Source: Bacteroidia bacterium
Lineage (GTDB): Bacteria; Bacteroidota; Bacteroidia; Bacteroidales; Prolixibacteraceae
Length of the DNA: 64,000 nt
Direction of reading: 5' to 3'
Assembly: GCA_026391295.1 (NCBI GenBank)
Contig: JAPLDS010000042.1
Span: forward strand, 65,684 to 129,683
The position numbers and the translations under genes were made by a program. Under the pieces are notes generated by a model that ran no database searches, had not been told where the DNA came from, and saw nothing but the letters and a program-made list of their open reading frames with translations. Positions 7,794 to 59,684 of this stretch are shown in pieces. Within the stretch, counting starts at the first letter, position 1, and every line of letters begins with the position of its first letter.

Positions 7794-7806
7794 CCTAGTC
7801 CAATTT

Positions 7807-30420: not shown

Positions 30421-33195
30421 ATGAACCGACTGTTTCTCCTCGATGCATATGCATTAATTTACCGTTCCTATTTTGCATTTATTAATGCCCCACGTATAAA
30501 TTCTAAAGGACTTAATACGTCCGCTATGTTTGGATTTGTTAATACGCTTGAGCAACTTCTAAAGACGGAGAAGCCGACACATATTGCGATTGCATTCGAT
30601 ATGAAAGGGCCGACATTTCGGCACGACATGTTTCCAGACTATAAAGCTAATCGCGACGAAATGCCTGAGGATTTGAGAAAGTCGATACCCTATATCCGAG
30701 ATATTATAAAAGGATATCAAATTCCAATCCTAGAAAAGGCGGGCTTTGAGGCCGATGATGTTATTGGCACGCTTGCAAAAGTGGCCGAGAAAAAGGGATT
30801 TCAAGTTTTTATGGTCACACCAGATAAAGATTATGCCCAATTAGTCTCTCCTAATATCTTTATGTACAAACCCAAACGAATGGGTAATGAGATGGAGATA
30901 CTGGGGGTGGAACAGGTCTGTGAGAATTTTCAGATTCAAAATCCATTACAAGTTATTGACATCCTAGGCCTGATGGGCGATGCATCAGATAATATTCCAG
31001 GTTGCCCTGGCATTGGTCCCAAAACGGCGATGAAACTTGTGGGAGAATTTGGAGGAATTGATGGCGTATACCAAAATTTAGAGCAGCTAAAAGGAAAACA
31101 AAAAGAGAGCCTCGCAACATTCGAAGAACAAGTACGCCTATCTCGTAAATTAGCAGAGATTATACTAGATGTCCCAGTTGAGTTTAATCAGGAGGACTTG
31201 CTTCTTTCGATTCCCGACACGGCTAAATTACGGGAGCTATTTCTAGAGCTTGAGTTCCGGACAATGGCTGAAAAATTGGGATCTGCAGCAGCAAAGCCGA
31301 TCGAAGCAGCCCCACTGGCCTTTGCACAAGGGACACTTTTCAGTGAAGTTGAACAAACACTTCCAGAATCATACTCCGAACAATCGAATCTTAATTCTAC
31401 CGATCATCACTATGTTTTAATTAATTCGGAAGAAAAAATTAAGGAGTTGGTCGGAACGCTAAGTCTACAAAAAGCTTTCTGCTTCGATACCGAAACAACC
31501 GGACTAGATACCCAATTAGACCAACTTGTTGGATTGTCTTTCTCCTTCAAAGCCAAGGAGGGGTATTATGTGCCAATACCATTCGAACAAGATGAAGCTC
31601 TAAAGCGAGTAAGCCTGTTCAAAGAGCTTTTTGCAACGGCAGATATTCTGAAAATTGGTCAGAATATGAAATTTGATATTCTAATGCTCACCCGCTACGG
31701 CATAGAGATCAAAGGTGAATATTTCGATACCATGGTGGCCCATTATCTAATCCAACCTGATCTTCGCCATAACCTAGATTATCTTAGTGATGTTTACCTG
31801 AACTATAAAAAAGTTGCCACTGAGGAGCTTATCGGGAAACGAGGGAAAAATCAGCTCTCGATGCGCGATGTTGAGCTCGAGCAAATCAAAGAGTATGCTT
31901 GTGAAGATGCCGATATAACTTTTCAATTAAAAAAGATTCTGGATCAAGAACTCTCTAGCGCGAATTTAAAAGAGCTCTTTGCAACTGTTGAGATGCCGTT
32001 ATTAAAAGTCTTGGTGCAGATGGAGATTTCAGGCTTGACTATTGATCCTAAGGCACTCGATGACTACGCTATTATCTTGCGAGAGCAAATTAATGAACTT
32101 GAAAATGCAATCATCGAATTAGCCGGAGAACCGTTTAATATTTCATCACCTAAACAACTTGGAACCATTCTTTTTGAAAAATTACTTCTTGATCCGAAAG
32201 CGAAGAAAACTAAAACCAAGCAGTATTCTACCGGGGAAGAGATCCTAGTTAATCTTCAAGATAAGCATCCAATAGTCAATAAAATATTGGAGTATCGAGG
32301 TTTAAAAAAATTACTCTCTACCTATGTCGAGGCCTTACCTAAATTAATAAATCCTAAAACAGGTAAAATACACTCCTCCTTTAATCAAACTATTGCTGCC
32401 ACCGGACGACTAAGTTCTACCAATCCGAATTTACAGAATATCCCTATTCGAGACGAAAGTGGACGTGAGATCAGAAAGGCTTTTATCCCTAGCGATAGTG
32501 ATCACTTATTTTTATCGGCCGATTATTCACAAATCGAATTGCGGATTATGGCTGCCGTCTCGGGCGACAAGGTGATGACTGACGCCTTTCAAAATGGGGA
32601 AGATATTCATGCTGCTACGGCCGCGAAGATCTTTGATGTCAAACTGACGGATGTAACTTCAGAAATGCGGCGAAAAGCAAAAACGGCCAACTTTGGAATT
32701 CTATATGGAATTTCGGCGTTTGGTCTATCGCAAAGGCTTCAAATCTCGCGAGCAGAAGCCAAAAAGCTAATCGATGATTATTATGCCAACTTCTCAACCA
32801 TCAAAAACTACATGGATACTCAACTTGATCTGGCGAGAGAGAGAGGTTTTGTGGAAACAATTATGGGTCGTAAACGTTATCTTAGTGACATTAATTCAGC
32901 AAACGCCACCATTCGATCTTTCGCAGAAAGAAATGCTATAAATGCACCAATCCAAGGCTCTGCTGCAGACATCATCAAAGTAGCGATGATCAATATTTAC
33001 AAGCGATTCGAAGAGCAAAACCTCAGTTCTAGAATGATTCTTCAGGTACACGATGAGTTAAATTTCGACGTCTTAAAAACCGAGTTAGAAGTGGTTAAAG
33101 AGATTATAAAGACTGAAATGGAACAGGCTATTAAATTAACGGTACCGCTTGAGATCGAACTCAAAGCCGCGGAAAATTGGCTCCTTGCCCATTGA
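30421..33195 (+). CDS. polA: DNA polymerase I
   Basis: 5'-3' exonuclease domain (LLDAYALIYRSYFA), 3'-5' exonuclease domain (FCFDTETTGLD), and polymerase motifs A (LSADYSQIELR), B (RRKAKTANFGILYG) and C (LQVHDEL). Confidence 0.97.
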   Translation: MNRLFLLDAYALIYRSYFAFINAPRINSKGLNTSAMFGFVNTLEQLLKTEKPTHIAIAFDMKGPTFRHDMFPDYKANRDEMPEDLRKSIPYIRDIIKGYQIPILEKAGFEADDVIGTLAKVAEKKGFQVFMVTPDKDYAQLVSPNIFMYKPKRMGNEMEILGVEQVCENFQIQNPLQVIDILGLMGDASDNIPGCPGIGPKTAMKLVGEFGGIDGVYQNLEQLKGKQKESLATFEEQVRLSRKLAEIILDVPVEFNQEDLLLSIPDTAKLRELFLELEFRTMAEKLGSAAAKPIEAAPLAFAQGTLFSEVEQTLPESYSEQSNLNSTDHHYVLINSEEKIKELVGTLSLQKAFCFDTETTGLDTQLDQLVGLSFSFKAKEGYYVPIPFEQDEALKRVSLFKELFATADILKIGQNMKFDILMLTRYGIEIKGEYFDTMVAHYLIQPDLRHNLDYLSDVYLNYKKVATEELIGKRGKNQLSMRDVELEQIKEYACEDADITFQLKKILDQELSSANLKELFATVEMPLLKVLVQMEISGLTIDPKALDDYAIILREQINELENAIIELAGEPFNISSPKQLGTILFEKLLLDPKAKKTKTKQYSTGEEILVNLQDKHPIVNKILEYRGLKKLLSTYVEALPKLINPKTGKIHSSFNQTIAATGRLSSTNPNLQNIPIRDESGREIRKAFIPSDSDHLFLSADYSQIELRIMAAVSGDKVMTDAFQNGEDIHAATAAKIFDVKLTDVTSEMRRKAKTANFGILYGISAFGLSQRLQISRAEAKKLIDDYYANFSTIKNYMDTQLDLARERGFVETIMGRKRYLSDINSANATIRSFAERNAINAPIQGSAADIIKVAMINIYKRFEEQNLSSRMILQVHDELNFDVLKTELEVVKEIIKTEMEQAIKLTVPLEIELKAAENWLLAH

Positions 33196-33260
33196 TCTGC
33201 TCATTTTATTTAATGTTTTAAAACATAAAAATGCCGTATTGGATAAAATAAAAAAACCAC

Positions 33261-33268
33261 TATGTTTG
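33261..33268 (+). promoter_or_regulatory. candidate -7 box (TATGTTTG) with a -33-like ATTG 19 nt upstream; promoter of the cytochrome/Gfo/ThuA operon
   Basis: Matches TAnnTTTG. ATTG at 33238-33241 gives a 19-nt spacer, as in the Bacteroides consensus promoter. Confidence 0.4.
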
Positions 33269-33286
33269 CAGAACGGATCAGAACGG
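33269..33286 (+). promoter_or_regulatory. two tandem copies of CAGAACGG spaced exactly 10 bp, directly abutting the -7 box (candidate operator)
   Basis: cagaacgg occurs at 33269-33276 and 33279-33286. Confidence 0.35.
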
Positions 33287-33376
33287 CTAAAAACATCCTA
33301 ATTTATTGGCCAAATGAGCTGTGAATGGGATCAAGTTCTATAAAAAAATAAAATAAGTAAAATAAATTTAACGCAA

Positions 33377-33384
33377 CAGAACGG
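33377..33384 (+). promoter_or_regulatory. third copy of CAGAACGG, 41 nt upstream of the start codon
   Basis: cagaacgg at 33377-33384. Copies 1 and 3 share a ninth base (CAGAACGGA). Confidence 0.3.
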
Positions 33385-33425
33385 AATCGACTGCTTGTGT
33401 TTTTAAAATACAACACCCTAAATAC

Positions 33426-34967
33426 ATGAATATCAAAAATCTTATAGATCGAATGATGCAAGGGTCAAGAACACCTTTGTGGTTGATCATCTTTGGCGTC
33501 CTCATAGGTCTAATTGCCATTGGAACGATTAACACGGTGTCAGATAAAACCTCAACGGATACCTATTGCATGTCGTGTCACGTGCACCCATGGGCCGAGC
33601 AAACTTGGCGTTTGTCGCCGCACAACTTTAACCGCACCGGGATAACAGTTCACTGTGTGGATTGCCATCTTCCGCCCAAAGGTGAAGGCTATCTGTTAGC
33701 AAAAGCAAAACATGGTGCTAAAGATGTGTACGGCTACCTATTTAAAGATAGTGCTAAAATTAATTGGGCAGACAAACGATTATTGGAGAATGCAAAAACA
33801 TTCACCTATGAAGCATCTTGTATTAAATGTCACTCCAATCTTTTCCCTGTGACCCTTTCGGTAAATGGCAGCAATGCCCATATGCAATATAAAAATTCGA
33901 AGGAAGATCCTAAGCCAACATGTATCAGCTGCCACCTTAACGTAGGCCATTATGACAAGAATGTCAAGCACGAACATGACACAAATTTTGGTGTTGATGC
34001 TGCCGCAAGTCAAGAGAAATTTGCCAGCTCGACAAAGGTTACCAAATTTGAAAACTTCACAGAAAAGATTCCTGGAACCACGGTTGCATTTGACATGGTT
34101 GCGATCCCTGAAGGGACATTCAACATGGGAAGCCCAGATAACGAGCCACTTCGGAAATCAGATGAAGGACCCGTTCGAAAAGTGAAGCTTTCAAAATTCT
34201 GGATGGGAAAAATTGAAGTCTCTTGGAATGAATACCTAGCCTTCTTTATGGCTACAGCCTCTCAAGGAAGAACCGAAGGACAAGTACTAACCAATAAAAA
34301 AGTTGATGCCATTACTGGTCCAACCCCACCTTGGGGTGCTCCTGATCAAGGATGGGGCAAAGGATCTAGACCTGCAATCACCATGTCATGGCGTTCTGCA
34401 AATACATATTGCCAATGGCTGTCTCAGGTTACTGGTAAAAAATATCGCCTTCCAACAGAAGCGGAATGGGAATATGCTTGTCGAGGAAATACGACAACTC
34501 CATATTTCTTTGAAGGCGATCCATCAAAATTCACCTCCAATGGTCTTCTGAAGAAAATATTTGGTCCCGATACAACAAAAATTAATTCGTATATTGTGTA
34601 TAAAGAAAATGGGGCTTCTAAAACAATGGATCCAAATTCAGTAAAAGCAAACCCATTTGGACTAAAGAACATGACGGGTAATATTGCAGAGTTTTGCTCT
34701 GATTATTATGCGCCTGATGCTTATAAAGGAGGAACTGGACTAGTGGTAAATCCACAAGGACCCGAATCAGGTCAAGAACATGTGATCAGAGGAGGTTCCT
34801 TTAAAAGCGATGCGAAGGATGTTCGAAGCGCAGCAAGAGATTTTACCAAGACAAAAGCTTGGTTATCAACCGATCCTCAGATGCCGAAAAGCGTTTGGTG
34901 GTATTCCGATTGTGTAGACAATGGGTTTAGGATTGTATGTGAAGCAGATAGTATTTCAGGTCAATAA
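33426..34967 (+). CDS. membrane-anchored tetrahaem cytochrome c (NapC/NirT/NrfH type) fused to an FGE-sulfatase (SUMF1-like) domain
   Basis: TM helix LWLIIFGVLIGLIAIGTINTV. Four CxxCH motifs: CMSCH (33567-33581), CVDCH, CIKCH and CISCH. The C-terminal domain has FDMVAIPEGTFNMGSP, PTEAEWEYACRG, NPFGLKNMTGNIAEFCSD and IRGGSF. Confidence 0.85.
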   Translation: MNIKNLIDRMMQGSRTPLWLIIFGVLIGLIAIGTINTVSDKTSTDTYCMSCHVHPWAEQTWRLSPHNFNRTGITVHCVDCHLPPKGEGYLLAKAKHGAKDVYGYLFKDSAKINWADKRLLENAKTFTYEASCIKCHSNLFPVTLSVNGSNAHMQYKNSKEDPKPTCISCHLNVGHYDKNVKHEHDTNFGVDAAASQEKFASSTKVTKFENFTEKIPGTTVAFDMVAIPEGTFNMGSPDNEPLRKSDEGPVRKVKLSKFWMGKIEVSWNEYLAFFMATASQGRTEGQVLTNKKVDAITGPTPPWGAPDQGWGKGSRPAITMSWRSANTYCQWLSQVTGKKYRLPTEAEWEYACRGNTTTPYFFEGDPSKFTSNGLLKKIFGPDTTKINSYIVYKENGASKTMDPNSVKANPFGLKNMTGNIAEFCSDYYAPDAYKGGTGLVVNPQGPESGQEHVIRGGSFKSDAKDVRSAARDFTKTKAWLSTDPQMPKSVWWYSDCVDNGFRIVCEADSISGQ

Positions 34968-34979
34968 AAGTATATTACA

Positions 34980-36332
34980 ATGAAAAACGATTTAAAGAAT
35001 ATCAACAGAAGGAAATTTTTAGGTGCAAGCGTTTTAGCGGGCATTGGAGCAGCTAGCGCAAGTGCGATCCTCTCCTCTTGCGGTCCAAAAAAGCTAGATA
35101 ATTTAGCTTTAGGCTTGCCTCCAATTTTAAAAGGTGCCCCTAAAGGTAAAAAGCTCCGTGCAGGTCTTGTTGGAGCTGGAAACCGTGGAACAGGAGCAGC
35201 CATTAACTTTATCAGCGCTGGGCCTGACCTAGAGATTGTTGCAATCGCAGATGTTTTTCAAGATAAGATTGATAATTGTCGTAAACGATTTGCATCCTTC
35301 GACTTACCTATTCCAGCCGAAAATTGCTTCGTTGGATTTGATGGCTACAAAAAGTTAATGGCGATGCCTGATATTGATGTGGTAATCCTTGCTACTCCTC
35401 CACAATTTCGTCCTGAACATTTTGCTGAAGCGATCTTAAATAAAAAACATTGCTTTATCGAAAAACCGGTCTGCGTAGATCCTGTAGGTGCGCGACTAAT
35501 GATTGCCACATCTAAAAAAGCTGATGCACTCGGACTTTGCGTCGTAACCGGGACTCAACGACGACATCAAGAAGATTATATTGAGACGTACAAACAAGTT
35601 ATGAATGGTGCTATCGGTAAGATCGTTTCAGCCAAAGCATTCTGGAATCAAGAGCATGTTTGGTTTAGAACTCGTGAAGAGGGATGGAACGACATGGAAT
35701 ATATGATCCGAAATTGGAATAACTTTAGCTGGCTTTGTGGTGACTTTATCCTTGACACACACGTACACAATATCGATGTCATCAATTGGTTTATGGGTAA
35801 ACCACCAGAAAAAGCAATTGGCTATGGCGGTCGTGCACGCAGAGTCACTGGAGATCAATACGACTTTTTTAGCGTCGACTACGACTACGGGAATGGCGTA
35901 AGTTCTCATAGCATGTGTCGCGAATTAGATAGCTGTACTAATGGAACTGGCGAAGTAATCAATGGCACAGAAGGCTATACAAACTGTGTCAACACAATTT
36001 GGAATTTAGATGGAACAGTTAAATGGAAATTTGATTACCCAAAAGACGACAATGGAAATGCGATGACCACGTTAAAAATTTCGCCTTATGTGCAGGAACA
36101 TATGCACCTAGTATATGCCATCCGAACAGGTAATACTGTGAATCAAGCAGAAACTACTGCTATTTCAACGCTTACTGCAATCATGGGACGAACAGCCGCT
36201 TATACTGGTCAATTAATCACTTGGGAGGCGATGATGAAGTCAGATATGGATCTAGGACCGAAAAAAATAGAGTTCGGACCAGTGGATATGGTATTTCAGA
36301 CACCGATTCCTGGAACTGATCCGCACGTTTAA
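34980..36332 (+). CDS. Tat-exported Gfo/Idh/MocA family oxidoreductase (lipoprotein-type signal)
   Basis: NRRKFLGASVLAGIGAASASAILSSC. Rossmann region LRAGLVGAGNRG, then ATPPQFRPEH and IEKPV. 450 aa. Confidence 0.9.
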   Translation: MKNDLKNINRRKFLGASVLAGIGAASASAILSSCGPKKLDNLALGLPPILKGAPKGKKLRAGLVGAGNRGTGAAINFISAGPDLEIVAIADVFQDKIDNCRKRFASFDLPIPAENCFVGFDGYKKLMAMPDIDVVILATPPQFRPEHFAEAILNKKHCFIEKPVCVDPVGARLMIATSKKADALGLCVVTGTQRRHQEDYIETYKQVMNGAIGKIVSAKAFWNQEHVWFRTREEGWNDMEYMIRNWNNFSWLCGDFILDTHVHNIDVINWFMGKPPEKAIGYGGRARRVTGDQYDFFSVDYDYGNGVSSHSMCRELDSCTNGTGEVINGTEGYTNCVNTIWNLDGTVKWKFDYPKDDNGNAMTTLKISPYVQEHMHLVYAIRTGNTVNQAETTAISTLTAIMGRTAAYTGQLITWEAMMKSDMDLGPKKIEFGPVDMVFQTPIPGTDPHV

Positions 36333-36367
36333 TACCATTAACCGATTAACAACTAAAATCAACTGAC

Positions 36368-37684
36368 ATGTTAGACAAATCTACCAGAAGAGATTTTCTG
36401 AGACAATCAACGGCCATTGGAACTGGTGCTATCATTTTGCCTCAATTGATTCCCTCAACAGCATTAGGCATGGGCGGGAAAGTTGCCCCTAGCGATCGAA
36501 TTGTGATGGGATGTATCGGAACAGGATCTCAGGGTACTGGAAACCTTCGCGAATTCTTAAAAAATCACCTCGACAGAGTGCAGTTTATTGCAATCTGCGA
36601 CGTCGATGCAAAGCATGCAGCAAATGCAAAAGGAGTGATCGACACCGCAAATAAAAATAGCGACTGCAAAGCTTATGGCGACTACCGTGAGTTCCTTGAA
36701 AAAGAAAAACTTGACGGAGTATCAATTGCTTTACCTGACCACTGGCATGGCTTGATCTATACTGCAGCAGCAAATAAAAAATTAGACGTTTATGGCGAAA
36801 AGCCTTTGGCACGTACAATTCATGACGGACAAGCCATTGTTAGCGCAGCCAAAAGAAACAATATTGTTTGGCAGACTGGCAGCTGGCAACGATCTCGTGA
36901 AAACTTCAGACGTGGTGCTGAACTAGCCGTAAATGGCCGAGTTGGAAAAGTTACACGCGTTGAAGTAGGTCTTCCAAACGGAAACAGAGGCGTTGGAACA
37001 CCTCCAATTAAAGAGGTTCCAGCTGAACTTAACTGGGAAATGTGGCTAGGTCCAGCATTGAAAGTCCCTTACCGTGGTATTAGCCACTGGGACTGGCGTT
37101 GGATCTTAGACTACTCTGGGGGACAACTTACAGACTGGTCGGGTCACCATATTGATATCGCACAATGGGGTATTGGAATGGAACGCTCTGGCCCTATTGA
37201 GATCGCAGGAGAAGCTGTATATCCAACCGATGGAATCTACAATGCTCCTGTTGAGTATGATTTTCTTTGTAAATATGCCAATGGTATTGAGATGCGCGTA
37301 GCCAATGAGGCTCGTATTGAAAAAGGTGCCGGAGCAACTTGGTATGGCGATAAAGGCTGGATCCATGTCAACAGAGGGAATACACTAACTGCTTCTGACC
37401 CAAAAATTCTTGAAGAAGTTATCGCCGATAATGAGATTCACCTCTATAAAAGCACAGACCATATTGGAAACTTCTTGGACTGCGTAAAATCACGCGGCGA
37501 AACTGTAGCACCTGTTGATATCGCACATCGCTCAATATCTGTCGGACTACTTGGAGAAATTGCAATGTCTACCGGACAAAAAATTCAATGGGACCCCGTA
37601 AAACAAGAGATCATTGGAAACCCAAAAGCGAGCCGTTTGCTAACTCGTCCATACCGTCAACCTTGGAATGTACCAACCATTTAA
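36368..37684 (+). CDS. Tat-exported Gfo/Idh/MocA family oxidoreductase
   Basis: STRRDFLRQSTAIGTGAII. Rossmann region VMGCIGTGSQG, then LPDHWH and GEKPL. 438 aa. Confidence 0.9.
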   Translation: MLDKSTRRDFLRQSTAIGTGAIILPQLIPSTALGMGGKVAPSDRIVMGCIGTGSQGTGNLREFLKNHLDRVQFIAICDVDAKHAANAKGVIDTANKNSDCKAYGDYREFLEKEKLDGVSIALPDHWHGLIYTAAANKKLDVYGEKPLARTIHDGQAIVSAAKRNNIVWQTGSWQRSRENFRRGAELAVNGRVGKVTRVEVGLPNGNRGVGTPPIKEVPAELNWEMWLGPALKVPYRGISHWDWRWILDYSGGQLTDWSGHHIDIAQWGIGMERSGPIEIAGEAVYPTDGIYNAPVEYDFLCKYANGIEMRVANEARIEKGAGATWYGDKGWIHVNRGNTLTASDPKILEEVIADNEIHLYKSTDHIGNFLDCVKSRGETVAPVDIAHRSISVGLLGEIAMSTGQKIQWDPVKQEIIGNPKASRLLTRPYRQPWNVPTI

Positions 37685-37696
37685 TCTAAAACTGTA

Positions 37697-38908
37697 ATGA
37701 AAAAATTAGTTAAATATCTATTTGTATTCGTCGCATTAGTCGTTGTATTGACTTCGTGCACTGGCGGGGCTTCATACAAAGCATTAATTATCACAGGGCA
37801 AAATAACCATAATTGGAAATCTAGTTCCCCGATCCTAAAAGAGGTGCTTTTGCAAACCGGCTTATTTACTGCTGAGATTGCAAAAAGCCCGGAAAAGGGA
37901 GGCGATATGAACTCCTTTAATCCCGATTTCTCGAAGTATAACGTAGTCATTATTGATTACAATGGAGAATCTTGGTCTGAAAAAACCAAGGCTGCATTCG
38001 TTGAATATGTAAAGAATGGTGGAGGCGTAGTCTCTTATCATGCTGGAGATAATTCATTCCCTGATTGGAAAGAATACAACGAAATGATCGGCCTAGGCGG
38101 ATGGGGAGGCAGGTCTCAAAAAGATGGACCTTATGTTTACTTCAAAGGTGATAAAATGGTCATCGACACTGCAGCAGGAAGTGGAGGAGCTCATGGTAAA
38201 AGACATGAATTCGAAATCAAAGCTCGCAATGTTGAACATCCAATCTTAAAAGGGCTTCCTCAACGATGGATACATGGAACCGATGAATTGTACGCTAAGC
38301 TGCGTGGACCAGGTAAAAATATGGAAATCATCGCAACTGCATATTCAGACACAGCGAAGGGTGGTACAGGCAGAAGCGAACCGATCCTAATGGTTATCAA
38401 CTACGGTAAAGGAAGAATATTCCATACGACCTTAGGTCATCCTGATAAAGAAGGGGGTCCAGCGTTACAATGTGTTGGATTCATAACTACCTTCCAAAGA
38501 GGTGCTGAATGGGCTGCATCAGGAAAAGTAACACAAAAAATACCGTATGATTTCCCAACCGCTGCAGGTTCATCATACCGCCTTGACTACAAAGAACTGA
38601 CGCTAGAAGAGGATCTTAATAAAATATCACAGTACGATATCACAAAGAGCACAAAATACTTTACCGACTTACAAACTCGTATTCGCAAAGAATCAAAAAC
38701 AGCTGATGACTTTGCAAAATTCGAAAAAGCAATGGTAAAAGTACTTGAGAATTCAAGCGCTAGTGATGACGGCAAAAAATTACTTCTTCGCGAACTAAGC
38801 TGGATGGGATCAGACATTAGTGTCTCAGCAATTAAAGAACTTGCGAAGAATCCAAATCTAAAAGATGAGGCGGAGTTTGCATTAGCTCGCCTAAGTCCTT
38901 CAAAATAA
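37697..38908 (+). CDS. ThuA-like domain lipoprotein with C-terminal HEAT-like repeat tail
   Basis: Lipobox VVLTSC. ThuA motifs are YKALIITGQNNHNWKSSSP, GGGVVSYHAGDNSF and TTLGHPD. The helical tail is LLLRELSWMGSDISVSAIKELAKNPNLKDEAEFALARL. Confidence 0.8.
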   Translation: MKKLVKYLFVFVALVVVLTSCTGGASYKALIITGQNNHNWKSSSPILKEVLLQTGLFTAEIAKSPEKGGDMNSFNPDFSKYNVVIIDYNGESWSEKTKAAFVEYVKNGGGVVSYHAGDNSFPDWKEYNEMIGLGGWGGRSQKDGPYVYFKGDKMVIDTAAGSGGAHGKRHEFEIKARNVEHPILKGLPQRWIHGTDELYAKLRGPGKNMEIIATAYSDTAKGGTGRSEPILMVINYGKGRIFHTTLGHPDKEGGPALQCVGFITTFQRGAEWAASGKVTQKIPYDFPTAAGSSYRLDYKELTLEEDLNKISQYDITKSTKYFTDLQTRIRKESKTADDFAKFEKAMVKVLENSSASDDGKKLLLRELSWMGSDISVSAIKELAKNPNLKDEAEFALARLSPSK

Positions 38909-38974
38909 TCTGATACAGACGAGACGAGAAACTAGACTTTAGTTTTAATAATCGTATAAATTTTACTAAAATAG

Positions 38975-39003
38975 CCTCAGTTTTTTACTGGGGTTATTTT
39001 ATT
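38975..39003 (+). terminator. rho-independent terminator of the cytochrome/Gfo/ThuA operon
   Basis: cctcag (38975-38980), 7-nt loop, ctgggg (38988-38993) with one G-U pair, followed by ttattttattt. Confidence 0.6.
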
Positions 39004-39062
39004 TATATCCGAAGATATTAATGTAAATTTACCCCTAATTGCCGACCTAACTATTTAAGGAT

Positions 39063-39991
39063 ATGCTTTCAATTGTCATCCCAATCTACAACGAAGAGAA
39101 GCTGATCGCCGAATTGGTGAAAAGAACTCATGCTGCATTAACAACATTCACCTCTAATTTTGAGATCATTGTTGTTGACGATGGCAGTGAAGATGATAGC
39201 TTAAAACACTTGCATGCATCTCCGGTGCAATCTCCCGAAAAATCGTCGCCCTATCTCGAAATTTTGGCCACCAAGCGGCCTACACAGCCGGACTAGAATA
39301 TGCCTCAGGCGAGTTCATTGGCATGATGGATGGGGACATGCAAGATCCACCTGAATTATTTGCAGAGATGTATCGCAAAATTCAGGAGGAAGGATTTGAT
39401 GTGATCAGTGCAAAAAGAACTGGTCGCAAAGGGAGTAACAGCCGCAACCTTCTAACCTTTATATTTCATCGCATTTTTAGGAATATCGCTGTGCTAAAGA
39501 ATATGGAAAATACCGGCAACTTTTCCATGATGACCAGGGAGGCCCTAACAGCCTTACTGTCCTTAAAAGAGAAGATCAGGTACCTGCCAGGACTTCGAAC
39601 ATTTATTGGATTTAAACAAGGCTATGTTGAATTTATTCGCGAAGATAGACTCAGCGGAGAGCCTAAAATGAGCTTGTCGAAGCTTTTCACACTTGCTGCC
39701 GATGCGATCTTCTCGTTCTCGAAACTGCCCATTCGGATGTGCTTAATTCTTGGACTGATCGGAACCTTCGTGTTTATGTGTGCGGGGGCGTATGTACTAT
39801 TTGCTAAAATAATGGGATTTGCCATTGCTGGATGGCCCTCAACAATGCTCAGCATCTACTTCTTAGGATCTATTCAACTGGTAGCACTCGGAATAGTTGG
39901 AGAATATGTCTATCGTATTTATAAAGAATCACAGGAGAGACCACTCTATTTTGTGAAGAAAATCTATGATGGAACTTCAGTGAAAAAATGA
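39063..39991 (+). pseudogene. GT2 polyprenol-phosphate glycosyltransferase (GtrB/ArnC/DPM1-like), interrupted by a -1 frameshift at an A5 tract
   Basis: ORF 39063-39296 gives LSIVIPIYNEEK and IIVVDDGSEDDS. The next frame continues IVALSRNFGHQAAYTAGLEYASGEFIGMMDGDMQDPPE and runs to two C-terminal TM helices. The frames overlap only in 39200-39296. One extra A in the run 39238-39242 would restore a single 309-codon ORF. Confidence 0.8.
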
Positions 39992-42048
39992 TTCAGAAAA
40001 ATCTGAAATACCTATTTCTCGGCTTATCAGCTCTTCTGCTAATTTTTATGCTAAAGAGCTCAGCTGATGCTGGGATATCAGGAGACGAATACCTCCATTA
40101 CGATCAGTCGAAAGCCGTTTATAACTATTTTGCCACCCTTGGCAAAGACTCTTCCGCGGTCAATACCCCTACTACTCATCTCAAATATTACGGTCAATCA
40201 TTCGATAATGCTACAACAATTTTAATCAAATGGTTCAATATCAAAGAGGTCTTTTTATTTCGTCATATAGCCTGTGCTTTAGCTGGTTGGCTGACCGTTC
40301 TTATAACAGCCCTATTTGCCATATGGCTTTCTGGATATGGATCCGCAATCCTTGTGATTTTACTCTTTGCAGCTTCTCCAACTTTCCTTGGGCACGCGCA
40401 AAACAACCTAAAAGATATACCTTTTGCACTAAGTTATATCGCAGCCTTGTTTTTTATGTCCCGCTTTCTGCTTCATCGAATTAGACGCAAGGAGGTAATT
40501 CTGCTAATTGCAAGTATCGCCTTCTCGATAAGTATACGATCTGGCGGACTCATCCTAATCTGTTTTCTATTCCTATTCCTGGCTGTCTCATACTTCTATG
40601 ATCTTCAACAAAACAAACAAATCGATTATAGGGCCTTTAAGGAGCGGTTTATCTATGCAATAGGCATAAGTCTGCTCTCGCTCTTGTTTAGTATCGTTTT
40701 ATGGCCCTATGCGCTTCATAATCCATTCCATAATATCTGGGAATCATATAAGGTGATGACCCAATTCCCGACCACGGTTATGCAGATCTTTGAAGGAAAA
40801 TCAGAATGGTCGGATTTAATGCCTTGGTACTATTTGCCAAAATACATGATTATTACCATTCCATTAATCGTCTTAACAGGTATTTTGGGATTTCTTATTC
40901 TTGCCCGGAAAATCGTGGATAAAAGCAATCTCCTCACCTATGGTATTATCCTCTTTTCGATCTTGTTTCCCATCGTATTTGTAATCTATGAGCATTCAAA
41001 TCTATATGGATCTTGGCGACATTTCACGTTTGTCTATCCGTCGCTCATCTTACTGGCTTCAATCGGCCTTTTAAATGCCTATGCAAGGATAAAGCACTAC
41101 TTCATAAAAATAGCATTTGCGTTAGCATTCATCGGATTATCATGGCATCCAATTCAATATATGGTGAAAAATCATCCCTACCTATACCTGTATTACAATC
41201 CCATAGTTGGTGGACTGCATGGTGCATATGGGAATTATGAAACAGATTACTACTACCATTCCATGCGTGAAGGATCGACCTGGCTTAACGAATATCTGCA
41301 AAAGAATAAGGAGGTAGGTCCTTTGAAAATAGCCTCTAATTTCTCCGTAAGCTGGTACTTCCGTGATCAACCATTGATATCAACATACTATTGCCAATAT
41401 GATGCAAGAAGTCAGTATGATTGGGACTATATGGTTGTTGCCAACAGTTATGTCTCTGCAAACCTATTGCAAACCAAAGTCTGGCCCCCAAAAGAAGCAA
41501 TACATACGATATATGCAGATGGAATTCCAATCTGCACAGTTCTAAAAAGAGCGACCAAGCTCGACTTTTACGGAACTGAATTGTTAAAAAAAGGAAATTT
41601 TGTCGAATCGGCTAAAATATTTGCTGATGCGCTAAAAATAAATGCACAAGATGAATTAATCTTTTATAATTTTGCCTCGGCTTTAGCGGGTCAAGGCAAG
41701 TTAGATAGTGCAAAAATAGCGCTTCACTCAGCCCTGGCCATCAACCCTCGATACGAGCCTGTCTTGATGTATCTTGGAAATATAGCAGTAGAGCAAAATA
41801 AACCAGAAGAGGCAGAGCGTTATTATAAACCATTATTAGGATATAACCCTAAATATTCGGAGGCCTATGTAAGCCTTGCAAATATTAGAATGAAAACTAA
41901 TTTGGCTGAAGCAAGAAGTTTATTGAAAGATTGTTTAATTCTGGACCCTAGATATATCCCAGCTGTTAGAGCATTGGCTGAGACCTATCGGAAGTCAAAT
42001 CCAGAAGTGGCAAAGAAGTATGATGAGTTAGCAAATTCTTATAAATAA
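39988..42048 (+). CDS. GT-C fold membrane glycosyltransferase (ArnT/PMT-like) with C-terminal TPR repeats
   Basis: Roughly a dozen TM helices by eye, with an acidic first-loop motif (SGDEYLHYD). At least four C-terminal TPR-like repeats (AKIFADALKINAQDE, ALAINPRYEPVLMYLGN, NPKYSEAYVSLANI). Its ATG overlaps the GT2 stop (ATGA). Confidence 0.78.
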   Translation: MIQKNLKYLFLGLSALLLIFMLKSSADAGISGDEYLHYDQSKAVYNYFATLGKDSSAVNTPTTHLKYYGQSFDNATTILIKWFNIKEVFLFRHIACALAGWLTVLITALFAIWLSGYGSAILVILLFAASPTFLGHAQNNLKDIPFALSYIAALFFMSRFLLHRIRRKEVILLIASIAFSISIRSGGLILICFLFLFLAVSYFYDLQQNKQIDYRAFKERFIYAIGISLLSLLFSIVLWPYALHNPFHNIWESYKVMTQFPTTVMQIFEGKSEWSDLMPWYYLPKYMIITIPLIVLTGILGFLILARKIVDKSNLLTYGIILFSILFPIVFVIYEHSNLYGSWRHFTFVYPSLILLASIGLLNAYARIKHYFIKIAFALAFIGLSWHPIQYMVKNHPYLYLYYNPIVGGLHGAYGNYETDYYYHSMREGSTWLNEYLQKNKEVGPLKIASNFSVSWYFRDQPLISTYYCQYDARSQYDWDYMVVANSYVSANLLQTKVWPPKEAIHTIYADGIPICTVLKRATKLDFYGTELLKKGNFVESAKIFADALKINAQDELIFYNFASALAGQGKLDSAKIALHSALAINPRYEPVLMYLGNIAVEQNKPEEAERYYKPLLGYNPKYSEAYVSLANIRMKTNLAEARSLLKDCLILDPRYIPAVRALAETYRKSNPEVAKKYDELANSYK

Positions 42049-47705: not shown

Positions 47706-48425
47706 CTAAATTAAATGCTCTCCTCCATCACAGAAGATTACCTGACCAGTTAAGTCTTGATTATCTAAAATAAAATCCAAACTTTTAAGGATCGCCAAAA
47801 GACCTGATGGAGTTTTCATTGGAGTTTTTTGAGCTATTTGATCAAGATAAGTATCGTCTTTATCCTCCGGTGGAAGAACGGCTCCAGGGGCAATCCCATT
47901 GACTCGGATAGTTGGTGCAAGTTCTAAAGCTGCCATTTTGGTTAAGTCCGTCAATACTTTTTTCGACAATGAATAAGCCATAAAATCACCCTTATTCTTT
48001 GTAACCCGAGTATCTAATAAATTAACGATTAATCCCTGCTTTGTAGTATTTGCAAAATCACGTATCAGAATAAATGGAGCGATGTAATTAACCATGGTAT
48101 GCTGTAAGATTAAATCATTGCTACTGCTCTTGAGTGTTGCAGAATTAAAAAGTGAAGCATTGTTAATCAGCAGATCAACAGAGCCCATCTTATCAACCAC
48201 ATTCGAGACAAGTTCACTGGTCATTTCTGCAGCGTTAAGATCAACTTTAAATGAAGAAAAGCGCTGAGATGGATACAGAGTCTTCAATTCTAATTCAAGC
48301 TCCGAAATCGTCTCTTTTGAGCTATTGTAATGAATGGCTATATCCCATCCGCTTTTAGCTAGATGAAAAGCCATCGCTCGACCAATTCTTTTAGCTCCGC
48401 CAGTAATCAACGCAACTTTATTCAT
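47706..48425 (-). CDS. SDR family oxidoreductase (pteridine reductase / FolM-like by context)
   Basis: ALITGGAKRIGRAMAFHL (TGxxxRIG), NNAS, YSLSKK (YxxxK) and RVNGIAPG. Lies adjacent to folB/folK. Confidence 0.8.
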   Translation of the reverse strand: MNKVALITGGAKRIGRAMAFHLAKSGWDIAIHYNSSKETISELELELKTLYPSQRFSSFKVDLNAAEMTSELVSNVVDKMGSVDLLINNASLFNSATLKSSSNDLILQHTMVNYIAPFILIRDFANTTKQGLIVNLLDTRVTKNKGDFMAYSLSKKVLTDLTKMAALELAPTIRVNGIAPGAVLPPEDKDDTYLDQIAQKTPMKTPSGLLAILKSLDFILDNQDLTGQVIFCDGGEHLI

Positions 48426-48468
48426 AATGCATGTTTTTATTAAATTTAAAGTAATCTATGAAGGATTA

Positions 48469-48496
48469 CAAAAAAAGGATGCTCGAAAGAGCATCC
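48469..48496 (-). terminator. rho-independent terminator after the YceI-family gene
   Basis: On the minus strand: ggatgctc, loop tttc, gagcatcc, followed by ttttttt (plus-strand A-run 48469-48476). Confidence 0.75.
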
Positions 48497-48521
48497 CTTT
48501 AATGATTAAAAAATGCAATCC

Positions 48522-49166
48522 TTAAATTTTCTTCGCTAGGATACTAAATGCAAGGGTAAAAGTATCCTCAATAGCTTTGTCTGCAATTCCTTGAAAGAAG
48601 CTAGCCGAACCATACTTGATTCCGTAAAGAGTACGATTCACTGTAATCACACCTGAGGCACTTATTTGAGGACCGTCTTTAGTGACTTTTGCAGTGAAGG
48701 CAACCGGCTGAGTGATCCCTTTTATTGTAAGATCAGCAATAATTCTATAGTCATCACCTGAAATTGGAGCAACTGATTTAATCGTCATGGTAGATTCAGG
48801 AAATTTTGCAACACCGAAAAAATCATCTGAGGTTAAATGGCCAATCAATTTCTTGTTGTAACCCGCATCAGTAAGATCTTCACAAATGATTGTTTTCATG
48901 TCAATAACAAATGATCCAGCCGAGATTACCCCTTTTTTAGCCGTGATAGTTCCGCTAGCAAAAGAGATCGTTCCATTGTGTTTTCCAGTAACTTTCTTCG
49001 CTTCCCATTTAACCTTACTTGCAGACTTGTCTAATGCAAAATCTCCTGCGAAAGCAGACGTGCCTAGGCCAACAAGAACGATAAATGCAAATAGTAAAAC
49101 TTTGATTTGAGCAATCATAGAGCGACCAGTGCTAACGTTTTCTGATTGAGAGTTGTTATTCTTCAT
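48522..49166 (-). CDS. YceI family (polyisoprenoid-binding) protein
   Basis: SKVKWEAKKVTGKHNGTISF, and a lipocalin-like beta-barrel pattern with HLTSDDFFGVAKFP. An N-terminal TM or signal segment is present. Confidence 0.82.
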   Translation of the reverse strand: MKNNNSQSENVSTGRSMIAQIKVLLFAFIVLVGLGTSAFAGDFALDKSASKVKWEAKKVTGKHNGTISFASGTITAKKGVISAGSFVIDMKTIICEDLTDAGYNKKLIGHLTSDDFFGVAKFPESTMTIKSVAPISGDDYRIIADLTIKGITQPVAFTAKVTKDGPQISASGVITVNRTLYGIKYGSASFFQGIADKAIEDTFTLAFSILAKKI

Positions 49167-57225: not shown

Positions 57226-58245
57226 TTAGAATAACGTTTGTTCGCCCGATCTGTTTGGAGTTCTGCCCAAATGTGTATAGGCTAATTCAGTTGCCTCCCG
57301 TCCCCGAGGTGTACGTTTCAAAAAGCCCTCTTTAATCAAAAACGGTTCATATACCTCTTCTATAGTTCCTGAATCCTCCCCTACCGCAGTAGCAATAGTC
57401 GTTATTCCAATTGGCCCACCTTTGAATTTATCGATAATAGTACTTAAAATACGATTGTCCATTTCATCCAATCCATATTTATCAATATTCAAAGCTTCTA
57501 AGGCATACTTTGTAATCTCAATATCGATTGTTCCATTCCCTTTAACCATGGCAAAATCACGCACTCGTCGCAATAATGCATTGACAATTCTTGGAGTTCC
57601 TCTGCTTCGTCTGGCAATTTCAAGCGCAGCATCTTCATAAATTACAACATCCAATATCTTAGCCGACCTTTTTACGATGGTCGTTAAAATGGTAATATCA
57701 TAATATTCTAGATGACAATTAATTCCAAATCTTGCACGCAAGGGAGCTGTTAATAAACCACTTCTTGTAGTCGCACCAATTAGAGTAAAATGATTTAAAT
57801 CCAATTGAATAGATCTTGCACTTGGACCCTTATCAATCATAATATCAATACGATAATCCTCCATGGCAGAATATAAATACTCCTCCACAACAGGACTTAA
57901 TCGATGAATTTCATCAATAAAAAGAACATCATTAGGTTCCAAATTAGTTAGAACACCTGCTAAATCGCCCGGCTTATCTAATACTGGTCCTGAAGTAAGT
58001 TTAAGATTAACCCCTAATTCATTAGCCAAAATATTAGATAATGTTGTTTTACCTAATCCAGGAGGACCATGCAAAAGAACATGATCCAAAGATTCACTTC
58101 GCATAACGGCAGCTTGAACAAAAATCTTTAGATTTTCAACAATTTTGTTTTGTCCACTAAAATCTGAAAAACGTAGTGGTCTTAATTTATTATCAAAATC
58201 AGTATCTTCTTGAGCGCTTCCTCTTATATCAATAAAATCATCCAT
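57226..58245 (-). CDS. ruvB: Holliday junction branch migration DNA helicase RuvB
   Basis: [12 protein letters not shown], Walker [10 protein letters not shown], Walker B LFIDEIHR and [15 protein letters not shown]. The track start at 58251 is a GTG, so I use the ATG at 58243-58245. Confidence 0.97.
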
Positions 58246-58277
58246 GATCACTAAAATCTATTAATCAATTTATATTT

Positions 58278-58664
58278 TTAAGCTAAAGTGCTTATTGCTT
58301 CTTTAAAAGAATCAAGATTAAATGGTTTAGGCAATAAATTATCCATCCCCACTTCAAGGTATTTTTGACTATTATTTTGAGCTATATTAGCAGTTATTCC
58401 CAAAATAGGTGTTCTTCTTTTTTCAGGATGTTTTAATTCAAAAGTTCTAATTTTTTTGGTTGCCTTATAACCATCCAAGAGAGGCATTTGAATATCTATT
58501 AAAATTAAATCAAATTCAGCAGCTAAGAAAAATTTATAACCTTCTAAACCATTTGTGGCAATAGAAATTTGACAATTATTCTTTTCTAAAATAATTTTAA
58601 TAACTCGTTGATTTATAATATTATCCTCGATCAGTAAAACAGCTAATTTATCATCTAATAGCAT
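58278..58664 (-). CDS. stand-alone response-regulator receiver domain protein (CheY-like)
   Basis: From the ATG at 58662-58664: MLLDDKLAVLLIEDN, DLILIDIQMPLLDG, ILGITAN and LPKPF. The track start at 58727 is a TTG extension. The gene is very AT-rich; the two 60-nt lines I hand-counted inside the gene had 15% and 30% GC. Confidence 0.8.
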   Translation of the reverse strand: MLLDDKLAVLLIEDNIINQRVIKIILEKNNCQISIATNGLEGYKFFLAAEFDLILIDIQMPLLDGYKATKKIRTFELKHPEKRRTPILGITANIAQNNSQKYLEVGMDNLLPKPFNLDSFKEAISTLA

Positions 58665-58888
58665 AAATAGTATATTTGAAGCTGTATTTATAGCACACAA
58701 ATTTAAACCATATAATTCAATCCACAACTTACCAATCTTCCAAGTTTAAACAGTTATTATTATTATTACTTTATTTAAAAGTTAAAATCTATTTCTAATA
58801 ATAGCCTGTTAATATCGTTTATAACTTTATCACTTATTTCTTGTTTAATCTATAAGGAATAGTTCTAAACGGGTTATTCAAAACTATG

Positions 58889-59132
58889 AACATCCTATTG
58901 TCTTAATTTGTTGTCTTTTATAGTGCTATTAACGAATGGTTAATAGTTATCTTTGTTTTTTAATTTATATAAATATTTAGTCGTCAAACTTGAAAAATTG
59001 GACTCATTAATTGTTTTAATTTTTCATAAGTTCATTTAGGATTTTTCATTTTTATTCTTACTAACTAGACTTTCATCTTAAGGCTAATTAGAGTAATAAA
59101 AAGTTATTAAGTCCAAACCACAATAGGATGTT
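58889..59132. repeat. 13-bp perfect inverted repeat bracketing a 218-bp AT-rich segment
   Basis: aacatcctattgt (58889-58901) is the exact reverse complement of acaataggatgtt (59120-59132). It lies inside the 549-bp gene-free gap 58665-59213. Confidence 0.8.
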
Positions 59133-59213
59133 AATAACTATAGATTAGAATAATTTTATTAAATAAATACTTAAAAATCAAAAGGTTAATTTGATTTAAA
59201 ATATATAGCTATC

Positions 59214-59651
59214 ATGAAAACTATCGGTTTAGCCTCTGATCATGCAGGGTTTGATTTAAAAATTCATATTAAAAACTATCTCATTAAATTGGGCTATTCT
59301 GTAATTGATTTTGGTTGCAATTCAGATCAAAGTTGTGATTATGCTGATTTTGCTCATTTATTAGGAACCGCTTTTGATAAACAAGAAATTAATCAAGGCT
59401 TCGTATTTTGCGGTACTGGTAATGGAATAAATATGACTGTTAACAAACACCAGTCAATTCGTTCGGCCTTATGCTGGAATAAAAATGTAGTAGAATTGGC
59501 TAGACATCATAATGATGCTAATGTTTGTGCTTTGCCAGCTCGGTTAATAAGTGAAGACGAGGCAGTAGCTATTGTCGATATATTCTTAAATGAGCCTTTT
59601 GATGGGGGTCGTCATGCTGTACGAATCGAAAAAATCCCAATAAAGAATTAA
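59214..59651 (+). CDS. rpiB: ribose 5-phosphate isomerase B
   Basis: IGLASDHAGFDLK, CGTGNGINMTVNK and RHHNDANV. 145 aa. Confidence 0.93.
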   Translation: MKTIGLASDHAGFDLKIHIKNYLIKLGYSVIDFGCNSDQSCDYADFAHLLGTAFDKQEINQGFVFCGTGNGINMTVNKHQSIRSALCWNKNVVELARHHNDANVCALPARLISEDEAVAIVDIFLNEPFDGGRHAVRIEKIPIKN

Positions 59652-59684
59652 TCCCCTTTTAACACACATACCTTAATATCTTCA

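Follow-up and report, generated by a model that had tools for sequence, protein, structure and literature searches.

A candidate flavinylated electron relay that couples Tat-exported Gfo/Idh/MocA dehydrogenases to respiration through a domain resembling formylglycine-generating enzyme

In a stretch of 64,000 nucleotides from a Bacteroidia bacterium of the Prolixibacteraceae (assembly GCA_026391295.1, contig JAPLDS010000042.1, positions 65,684 to 129,683 of the forward strand), referred to here as the window, an operon of four genes encodes a fusion of a tetrahaem cytochrome to a domain resembling formylglycine-generating enzyme (FGE; gene 1), two Gfo/Idh/MocA dehydrogenases with twin-arginine translocation (Tat) signals (GfoA and GfoB, genes 2 and 3), and a ThuA lipoprotein (gene 4). 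This analysis suggests, with a probability of roughly one half, that the products of genes 1 and 2 form a membrane-bound dehydrogenase in the periplasm, from which electrons reach the respiratory chain via a covalent flavin and haems. The initial annotation of the operon had proposed periplasmic, cytochrome-linked sugar oxidation by all four genes, with the FGE-like domain as a possible docking or substrate-binding module. The outline of that proposal stands, although the conserved gene unit is a different one and the role given to the FGE-like domain is probably wrong.

The conserved unit is the FGE-like protein together with GfoA. Scanning one genome per species gave 80 loci, of which 38 belong to the clade of FGE-like proteins that includes gene 1 and 41 are more distant FGE-family loci, used as controls; the remaining locus (L047) matches the signature pattern of the clade but lacks the flavinylation-type motif, GfoA, and ApbE, and was counted in neither group. 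Nine of the clade loci contain the full-length fusion (L001-L009; Bacteroidia, Prolixibacteraceae, Draconibacterium, Porphyromonadaceae, KSB1, and Acidobacteriota). In about 29 others, the FGE-like protein is 33-45 % identical, carries the segment DPQxPKSxWW, and is either secreted as a stand-alone protein or fused to a part with one or two haems. Within 1.5 kb, 25 of the 38 clade loci have a GfoA homologue and none of the 41 controls does (Fisher p=2e-11), and the clade loci with GfoA come from at least five phyla, including Bacteroidota, Planctomycetota, Verrucomicrobiota, and Acidobacteriota. As the initial annotation had anticipated, the fusion itself is conserved beside a Gfo/Idh/MocA gene, both in all eight of the scan's fusion loci that have downstream DNA (the copy in L008 being frameshifted) and in six further fusion loci retrieved by exact protein look-up (L081-L084, L088, and L089).

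Two unrelated kinds of c-type cytochrome are fused independently to the FGE-like domain, and the cytochrome part varies or is absent. The NapC/NirT tetrahaem type is found in Bacteroidota, KSB1, and Acidobacteriota (L001-L009), and a mono- or dihaem PSCyt1 domain (Planctomycete-type cytochrome c) in Verrucomicrobiota and Acidobacteriota (L015, L016, L018, L020, and L024); one or two CxxCH motifs are present in 21 of the 120 best matches to a profile of the FGE-only proteins. The FGE-only protein is paired with GfoA in the cultured genera represented by Pedobacter sp. Hv1 (L019) and Eudoraea adriatica (L025). Dyadobacter, Parapedobacter, Pontibacter, and Flagellimonas have FGE-only members as well, although the one Parapedobacter-type locus examined (L086) has no adjacent GfoA.

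The clade is tied not only to GfoA but also to ApbE genes, unlike the 41 other FGE-family loci. When all open reading frames (ORFs) lying up to 5 kb from the FGE-like gene were clustered for loci L001-L037, the three most recurrent families were the FGE-like proteins, GfoA, and an ApbE of about 310 aa (PF02424, E=1e-73 to 1e-76). An ApbE gene is present within 6 kb in 13 of the 38 clade loci and 0 of the 41 controls (Fisher p=2e-5). In L024, GfoA, the cytochrome-FGE fusion, and ApbE follow each other in a co-directional operon with a 14-bp overlap, and in L018 the order is cytochrome-FGE, GfoA, ApbE. In four loci (L011, L012, L021, and L058), ApbE is located beside the FGE-like gene with no GfoA nearby. 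GfoA was considered as the target of ApbE and rejected, given that no flavinylation motif is present in 23 GfoA homologues and that ApbE is found with the FGE-like gene in loci lacking GfoA. The FGE-like protein is therefore indicated as the ApbE client.

In a published account, ApbE is described as a FAD:protein FMN (flavin mononucleotide) transferase that modifies the last Thr/Ser of D-x-x-[S/T]-G-A-[S/T] in extracytoplasmic proteins, with flavinylation still at about 50 % after G-to-A or A-to-V substitutions in the motif (PMC12052999). In gene 1, a sequence close to this motif, DAITGPT, contains Thr300 as the predicted attachment residue. Among the 120 closest homologues, the motif is DAISGAT, DAITGAT, or DAVSGAT in 78 and ends in [ST]GPT in the other 42, the protein of the window included. 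In the wider clade it takes the form D[AG][VI][TS]xP[TS], for example D-A-V-T-R-P-T/S, and Thr or Ser is kept at the attachment position in all 38 clade loci, even where other positions of the motif drift. This Thr/Ser motif and the DPQxPKSxWW segment set the clade apart from its FGE relatives; the true FGE of T. curvata has DAVVPEA at the motif position, with Ala at the attachment residue.

In the AlphaFold2 (AF2) model of the FGE-like domain, the motif site lies in a loop of low confidence that is presumably flexible, and the loop residues TPPWGAPDQGWGKG are invariant among the homologues. The motif is C-terminal to the single transmembrane helix and shares its side of the membrane with the c-type haems, and is extracytoplasmic as judged from the sequence; the FGE-only homologues have hydrophobic, signal-peptide-like N-termini. 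Haems, FGE-like domain, GfoA, and ApbE are all predicted to be extracytoplasmic. Gene 1, through its FGE-like domain, is a candidate for a new class of ApbE substrate. For the clade as a whole, slightly less than even odds are given to the wider proposal that its FGE-like domain is an unrecognised ApbE substrate class, a flavinylated adaptor that would make Tat-exported Gfo/Idh/MocA dehydrogenases respiratory, with either NapC/NirT and quinone or PSCyt1 and cytochrome c as the outlet.

The FGE-like domain shares an extracytoplasmic location and a similar motif with the proteins known to be flavinylated by ApbE (NqrC, RnfG, NosR, PplA, UrdA/FrdA FMN_bind, DUF2271, and DUF3570; Meheust et al. 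2021, PMC8238504). Its fold differs from the FMN_bind, DUF2271, and DUF3570 folds of these carriers, and most clade members have Pro, rather than the Ala of the known motif, before the target Thr/Ser. In part of its loci, the clade would also resemble the flavinylated relays described in that survey, in which apbE lies within the cluster, cytochromes are interchanged in a modular manner, and a redox enzyme is linked to the respiratory chain (PMC8238504). The terms FGE, sulfatase, and Gfo are absent from the main text of the 2021 survey, a 2024 follow-up, and a 2025 review. A full-text literature search, covering few subscription journals, returned no paper that links FGE-like proteins with ApbE, Gfo/Idh/MocA, or NapC/NirT proteins, and no published description of the core-pair arrangement.

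Residues 223-473 of gene 1 match the Pfam FGE-sulfatase family with 141.6 bits, and each of the FGE motifs listed in the initial annotation (FNMGSP, EAEWEYACRG, GLKNMTGNIAEF, and RGGSF) is present. Its judgement that the domain is something other than a true FGE also holds. In true FGE, a catalytic Cu(I)-binding Cys pair follows the RGGS motif (GGSFLCHxSYC). The pair is missing from gene 1, where GGSFKSDAKDV aligns to GGSFLC of the T. curvata enzyme, with Ser461 at the first Cu-binding Cys, and the next Cys (C496) is unconserved across the wider clade. Sulfatase genes are missing both from the recurrent neighbours (GfoA, ApbE, and a TIM barrel) and from the genes that Pfam annotates within 10 kb in a 95%-identical relative. 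A true FGE serving sulfatases was ruled out on these two grounds, the absent Cys pair and the absent sulfatase neighbours.

The fold is that of SUMF1, PvdO, GldJ/GldK/PorK, the EgtB C-domain, and ToxD, and the predicted periplasmic location is shared with PvdO and PorK. A full-length AF2 model of gene 1 (18-sequence alignment; pLDDT 30, pTM 0.21) was unusable and the FGE-like domain was modelled alone, from a 65-sequence alignment, with pLDDT 80.8 and pTM 0.84. Foldseek matched this model to human FGE (1y1h, 2.9e-19), and the best TM-score, 0.65, was to PvdO. The only internal stretches of low confidence are residues 279-299, which hold the motif loop, and 483-491, which hold the clade signature; this fits a cofactor-dependent or mobile element.

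The cytochrome part of gene 1 has the NapC/NirT/NrfH-type architecture recognised in the initial annotation, with one hydrophobic helix and four CxxCH motifs. Residues 18-176 match Cytochrom_NNT (PF03264) with 103.3 bits (cut-off 24.1), the isolated N-terminal part scores 106 bits, and there is a weak match (5e-06) to the NrfH structure 2j7a. Curated equivalog cut-offs are not reached (NrfH, 68.7 against 134.2; NapC/NirT, 65 against 310.6; TorC, 66 against 478), and gene 1 is classed by these scores as a PF03264 family member of no characterised subfamily. All 120 of the closest homologues (66-99 % identity) are about 511 residues long and have the same two Pfam domains and four CxxCH motifs; their only annotations are 'SUMF1/EgtB/PvdO family nonheme iron enzyme' or 'formylglycine-generating enzyme'. 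As with NapC, NirT, NrfH, CymA, and ImoA, the menaquinone pool is the expected electron-exchange partner of gene 1. Gene 1 is unlike them in its C-terminal FGE-like fusion, in having a predicted NAD(P) dehydrogenase rather than a molybdo- or haem reductase as partner, and in that the likely direction is quinone reduction.

GfoA consists of PF01408 and PF22725/PF02894 domains behind a Tat signal and lipobox (residues 1-34, nucleotides 34980-35081; NRRKFLG and LSSC). Twin-arginine signals had been reported for both dehydrogenases (RRKFL with LSSC in GfoA, RRDFL in GfoB) and both are confirmed, as are the Gfo/Idh/MocA N and C domains in each protein. Among the 23 GfoA homologues, the RR and F of the signal are invariant, GxGxxG and EKP are conserved, and conservation reaches 95 % or more for G65-x-G67, E161-K162-P163, H263, and D266. 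The lipobox is found only in loci with a membrane-anchored partner, which fits a complex at the membrane surface. By sequence matches, GfoA is closest to inositol dehydrogenases (PDB matches at about 1e-10), and it scores 35.4 bits against BT_2158_fam (NF058561), where the cut-off is 750. A GH109 identity for either GfoA or GfoB was ruled out, with no GH109 structure among the PDB matches at E<=0.001.

In the relay proposed here, GfoA, exported by Tat with its nicotinamide bound, would oxidise a hydroxyl of a periplasmic sugar, glycoside, or cyclitol to a ketone. The hydride of the bound NAD(P)H would pass to FMN, attached by ApbE to Thr300 in the exposed loop of the FGE-like domain, and the flavin would split the electron pair into single electrons, which would travel along the four NapC/NirT c-type haems to menaquinone in the membrane. 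The FGE-like domain would thus be a redox adaptor and a new kind of flavinylated domain. In other phyla, the FGE-like/GfoA pair would do without the NapC/NirT anchor and work with a soluble-type PSCyt1 domain or with no cytochrome fusion at all. We infer the covalent FMN from the motif and the gene linkage; the direction of electron flow, physical contact between GfoA and the FGE-like domain, and the substrate are likewise inferred. A hydride from NAD(P)H can be taken up by flavin and not by haem, and the flavin would supply the two-electron to one-electron converter that the scheme of the initial annotation was without. Electron transfer from NAD(P)H (about -320 mV) to menaquinone (about -74 mV) runs downhill over a gap of about 250 mV. 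Together with the precedent of ImoA, a NapC/NirT protein proposed to take up periplasmic electrons (PMC9600427), this is the ground for the proposed flow toward quinone.

The sugar-oxidation context suggested in the initial annotation remains plausible. Tat-signal xylose-isomerase-like TIM barrels (AP_endonuc_2), the fourth most recurrent neighbour family, follow GfoA in six loci, and one FGE-only member is located in a polysaccharide utilization locus with a 3keto-disac_hyd protein, a GH109-like protein, GH20, and SusCD. From this context, a 3-keto-sugar-like chemistry is plausible for the GfoA substrate.

Several points weigh against the relay. NapC/NirT proteins usually act as quinol dehydrogenases, which is the opposite direction to that proposed, and FMN, haem, and NAD(P) in the clade proteins are all predicted. 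No ApbE was found in the 64-kb window (tblastn, best E=0.27) or beside any Bacteroidota fusion locus, therefore a housekeeping ApbE encoded elsewhere must be assumed for these genomes. The motif of the window, DAITGPT, has Pro at the canonical Ala position and most of the wider clade has x-P-[T/S], whereas the published tolerance concerns G-to-A and A-to-V changes only. The D-A-V part of the motif is already present in true FGE, so that the resemblance is partly inherited. Thirteen of the 38 clade loci have no adjacent GfoA, and one PSCyt1-FGE gene (L087) stands alone. GfoA itself matches no curated equivalog, the best being IolG with 70 bits against a cut-off of 355.

Of the other explanations, the one that survives best, although it is unlikely, keeps the FGE-like domain as a non-redox docking or substrate-binding module, as in GldJ/GldK/PorK, with electrons passing directly between dehydrogenase and haems. 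The FGE fold without its catalytic Cys pair, the structural role of GldK/PorK-type proteins (gene 1 scores 112 bits against GldK and also matches PorK structures), and the conserved pairing with GfoA would all be expected from a scaffold. The linkage to ApbE and the conserved flavinylation-type motif would be left unexplained, and for these reasons the inert docking scaffold of the initial annotation is probably wrong. In addition, a haem would have to serve as hydride acceptor for buried NAD(P)H, and an invariant loop is unusual for a mere tether.

Electrons might instead run in reverse, from menaquinol through NapC/NirT and the FGE-like domain to GfoA, which would then reduce a periplasmic carbonyl, such as a 3-keto-sugar, as a respiratory or detoxifying reductase. 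The architecture of the locus leaves the direction unfixed, and NapC, NirT, NrfH, and CymA proteins are typically quinol dehydrogenases that serve periplasmic reductases. CymA is an example (PMC3340143), and ApbE-flavinylated domains often feed extracytosolic reductases, according to the 2021 survey (PMC8238504). Reversed flow is nevertheless quite improbable, because the transfer from menaquinol to bound NAD(P)+ would be strongly uphill at the potentials given above. The class-I-type PSCyt1 fusions look more like donors to an aerobic chain than quinol-driven reductases, and the Tat-signal TIM barrels and 3-keto-disaccharide hydrolase context fit the production of keto-sugars rather than their reductive removal.

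The chances are lower again that the FGE-like domain is itself a catalyst, a metal- or flavin-dependent periplasmic oxidase or oxygenase for a small molecule or peptide, resembling PvdO, with the cytochrome as its electron partner and GfoA carrying out an adjacent step with no exchange of electrons. PvdO, the structure with the best TM-score, is implicated in dihydropyoverdine oxidation, true FGE requires an external reductant, and the four loci with ApbE and no GfoA would suit such an enzyme. However, the Cu-binding Cys pair is absent, and the matches to the 'dihydropyoverdine dehydrogenase' PvdO model (100 bits) and to EgtB (57 bits) fall below the curated cut-offs of 500 and 360. The tight pairing with GfoA across phyla and the translational coupling between them argue for a shared reaction.

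It is very unlikely that the core pair works in the synthesis of envelope glycoconjugates, not in catabolism, and acts with the downstream GT2 glycosyltransferase and the 686-aa multi-TM (transmembrane)/TPR protein to oxidise or epimerise a lipid-linked periplasmic sugar, with electrons passed to menaquinone by a DprE1-like logic, since the gene order that suggests it (cytochrome-FGE, GfoA, with or without GfoB and ThuA, GT2, TPR, kept down to 50 % GT2 identity and flanked by housekeeping genes with no SusC/D or transporter) is limited to one Bacteroidota lineage (L002, L003, L081-L084, L088, and L089) and absent from L004-L009 and all FGE-only loci, GT2 is set off from gene 4 by a strong terminator-like hairpin, and it is frameshifted in the window where the four operon genes are intact.

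The preferred reading, a flavinylated relay from GfoA to quinone, has likenesses among known systems. Wiring of a periplasmic dehydrogenase to respiration is seen in the LacABC glucoside 3-dehydrogenase and in quinoprotein dehydrogenases with cytochrome c partners; LacABC, a 3-keto-disaccharide-forming system described as cytochrome-c-dependent (PMC8121099), differs in being FAD-based and is unrelated in sequence. Twin-arginine signals, a Rossmann domain, the EKP motif, and a predicted role in periplasmic sugar oxidation are shared by GfoA and GfoB with the glucose-fructose oxidoreductase of Zymomonas, which is Tat-exported and keeps a tightly bound NADP, and with BT2158 of Bacteroides (PMC8121099). 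In these enzymes the bound cofactor is thought to be re-oxidised by a second sugar, for BT2158 'another as yet unidentified sugar' in the words of its authors (PMC8121099), whereas a flavin/cytochrome outlet is proposed here.

For the re-oxidation of NAD(P) bound in periplasmic Gfo/Idh/MocA enzymes, the relay, if true, would be a second and energy-conserving answer. Oxidation of sugars or glycosides in the periplasm would then conserve energy directly, in a system that would be widespread in Bacteroidota, Planctomycetota, Verrucomicrobiota, and Acidobacteriota. The FGE/SUMF1 fold would join the list of flavinylated electron carriers, and the relay might explain some of the 'orphan' apbE genes left over in the 2021 survey. 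It would also give a function to a very large FGE-like family. The annotation 'formylglycine-generating enzyme' or 'SUMF1/EgtB/PvdO nonheme iron enzyme' covers thousands of 90%-identity clusters, and for this clade it is almost certainly wrong.

The features of the operon are collected in Table 1. The four co-directional, closely spaced genes are as initially annotated, with exact coordinates and intergenic gaps of 12, 35, and 12 bp. The hairpin with T-run downstream of gene 4 was likewise found again, placed at the coordinates in the table; in a scan for sigma-70 promoters and terminators, counts equalled the shuffled expectation and this hairpin was the sole outlier. The promoter box proposed upstream of gene 1 fits the consensus but carries no statistical weight, as the window has 72 copies of TAnnTTTG where 71.8 would be expected. 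An Rfam scan of 32900-39400 at E<=1 gave neither a riboswitch nor a leader RNA.

Table 1. Positions of the operon genes, protein regions, and flanking signals in the window
Feature	Position	Strand	Basis or remarks
Candidate ApbE flavinylation site DAITGPT, residues 294-300; Thr300 predicted FMN-phosphoester residue	34305..34325	+	Motif and homologue conservation
Gene 1, cytochrome-FGE fusion	33426..34967	+	ORF of 513 aa
N-terminal transmembrane helix LWLIIFGVLIGLIAIGTINTV, residues 18-38	33477..33539	+	Hydrophobic stretch read from sequence, inside PF03264 match
Periplasmic tetrahaem module (predicted)	33543..33980	+	CxxCH at residues 48, 77, 132, and 166 (33567-33581, 33654-33668, 33819-33833, and 33921-33935)
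FGE-like (SUMF1/PvdO-fold) domain	34092..34940	+	Without Cu-binding Cys pair; C-terminal signature DPQMPKSVWW
Gene 2, GfoA	34980..36332	+	ORF of 450 aa
Gene 3, GfoB	36368..37684	+	ORF of 438 aa
Gene 4, ThuA lipoprotein	37697..38908	+	ORF of 403 aa
TAnnTTTG-type -7 box TATGTTTG	33261..33268	+	Bacteroidetes consensus; sole + strand match between polA and gene 1
Terminator-like hairpin, 15 pairs and T-run, 3′ of gene 4	38967..39001	+	Strongest such site in the region

GfoB and gene 4 form an accessory pair. GfoB has PF01408 and PF19051 (GFO_IDH_MocA_C2) domains and a Tat motif, TRRDFLR (TIGR01409, 17.3 against a cut-off of 16.7). It scores 148.5 bits against BT_2158_fam (cut-off 750), over residues 6-273 only, and matches structure 8tdf at 3e-25; on these scores, its N-terminal half resembles BT2158-type glycoside 3-dehydrogenases, and neither GfoA nor GfoB is a BT2158 equivalog. 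In gene 4, the ThuA domain (PF06283, 88.8 bits against a cut-off of 33.4; residues 27-300 match the ThuA-like structure 4e5v at 5e-104) and the lipobox (LTSC, Cys21) are as the initial annotation had described, whereas the HEAT-like tail it reported was not recovered, residues 290-403 matching no Pfam family at E<=10. The 114-aa C-terminal tail spans nucleotides 38564-38905, and the 403-aa architecture is widespread.

The same order of four genes is present in at least five other assemblies, far beyond chance, and GfoB with ThuA is present in about six relatives. The order polA, cytochrome-FGE, GfoA, GfoB, ThuA, GT2, TPR is shared by the 95%-identical relative, L084, and L088; in L089, msrAB takes the place of polA, and in L001, polA and the four genes are succeeded by another GfoB paralogue, where the contig ends. 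However, the same flanks enclose the core without GfoB and ThuA in L082 and L083 (polA, cytochrome-FGE, GfoA, GT2, TPR) and in L081 (msrAB, cytochrome-FGE, GfoA, GT2), and GfoB-ThuA is found alone in L085. The four genes are therefore not a single system, as had been proposed, but a two-gene core joined by a separately mobile pair resembling ThuB/ThuA. In L085 (6672-9212), this pair is located in a glycoside-hydrolase-rich locus with GH106, GH43, DUF4838, GH2, CBM9, GHL10, and another Gfo gene, a context that suggests a role in plant or algal glycan breakdown independent of cytochrome-FGE.

The analogy to ThuA/ThuB drawn in the initial annotation applies to the accessory pair only and not to the core. 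Like ThuB and ThuA of rhizobia and Agrobacterium, which form 3-keto-disaccharides and are described as cytochrome-c-dependent (PMC8121099), GfoB and gene 4 are a pairing of a Gfo/Idh/MocA gene with a ThuA gene. They are unlike them in that both have export signals, the ThuA protein has its extra 114-aa tail, and the pair is accessory to a core. As a putative glycoside-oxidising pair placed in the same transcription unit, GfoB and ThuA may share the electron outlet of the core.

Some architectures in and around the clade depart from those above. In L008, from an Acidobacteriota metagenome-assembled genome, both the GfoA downstream of the fusion (9762-10910) and the ApbE upstream (6948-7866) are broken into several frames, by either assembly errors or gene decay; this is the sole NapC/NirT-fusion locus with an adjacent ApbE. 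Tandem FGE-like duplicates are present in several Planctomycetota loci and one Methylococcaceae locus (L023, 8091-10516; L028, 1394-3654; L041, with three copies), and the Thr/Ser motif is kept in both copies of L023 and L028. A clade variant of about 722 aa (L010, 4684-6855; P0449, P0454, P0456, and P0470) has a 400-aa N-terminal extension before the FGE-like domain that appears FG-GAP/VCBS-like (DFDGDGHMD). A profile search of 1.84 billion representatives with the FGE-like alignment, seeking FGE fusions with Gfo or ApbE, was uninformative in its top 150 matches, which are mostly proteins with multiple FGE repeats. The FGE-sulfatase superfamily comprises 235,536 of these representatives at E<=0.001, among them giants of up to 4448 aa with up to 22 tandem FGE-like repeats (P0361-P0510).

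Downstream of the operon, GT2, of the polyprenyl-phosphate glycosyltransferase type, and a multi-TM/TPR protein of 686-689 aa (39063-42048 in the window) always follow the core in the one Bacteroidota lineage noted above. In the window, the GT2 gene (39063-39991) is split by a frameshift at about 39215-39240, with the first 50-odd residues in one frame (MLSIVIPIYNEE...) and the remainder (…KIVALSRNFGHQAAY…MMDGDMQDPPE…) in another; it is intact in relatives, at 309-311 aa, and here may be a pseudogene or the product of a sequencing error.

YceI proteins, which bind isoprenoid quinones, are encoded near two of the loci. The YceI-domain gene of L012 (9074-9616) has the FGE-like gene on one side and ApbE on the other, and is followed by an ORF whose GGGSGIG N-terminus is SDR-like. 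The window has a YceI-like gene too, together with an SDR gene, about 9 kb downstream of the operon (47706-49166, - strand; assigned by Pfam through the syntenic relative). YceI proteins might be a carrier for stand-alone FGE-like flavoproteins, or their presence might be coincidence. Further along the window, at 58001-60000, the G+C content drops to 0.288, compared with 0.34-0.43 in the rest.

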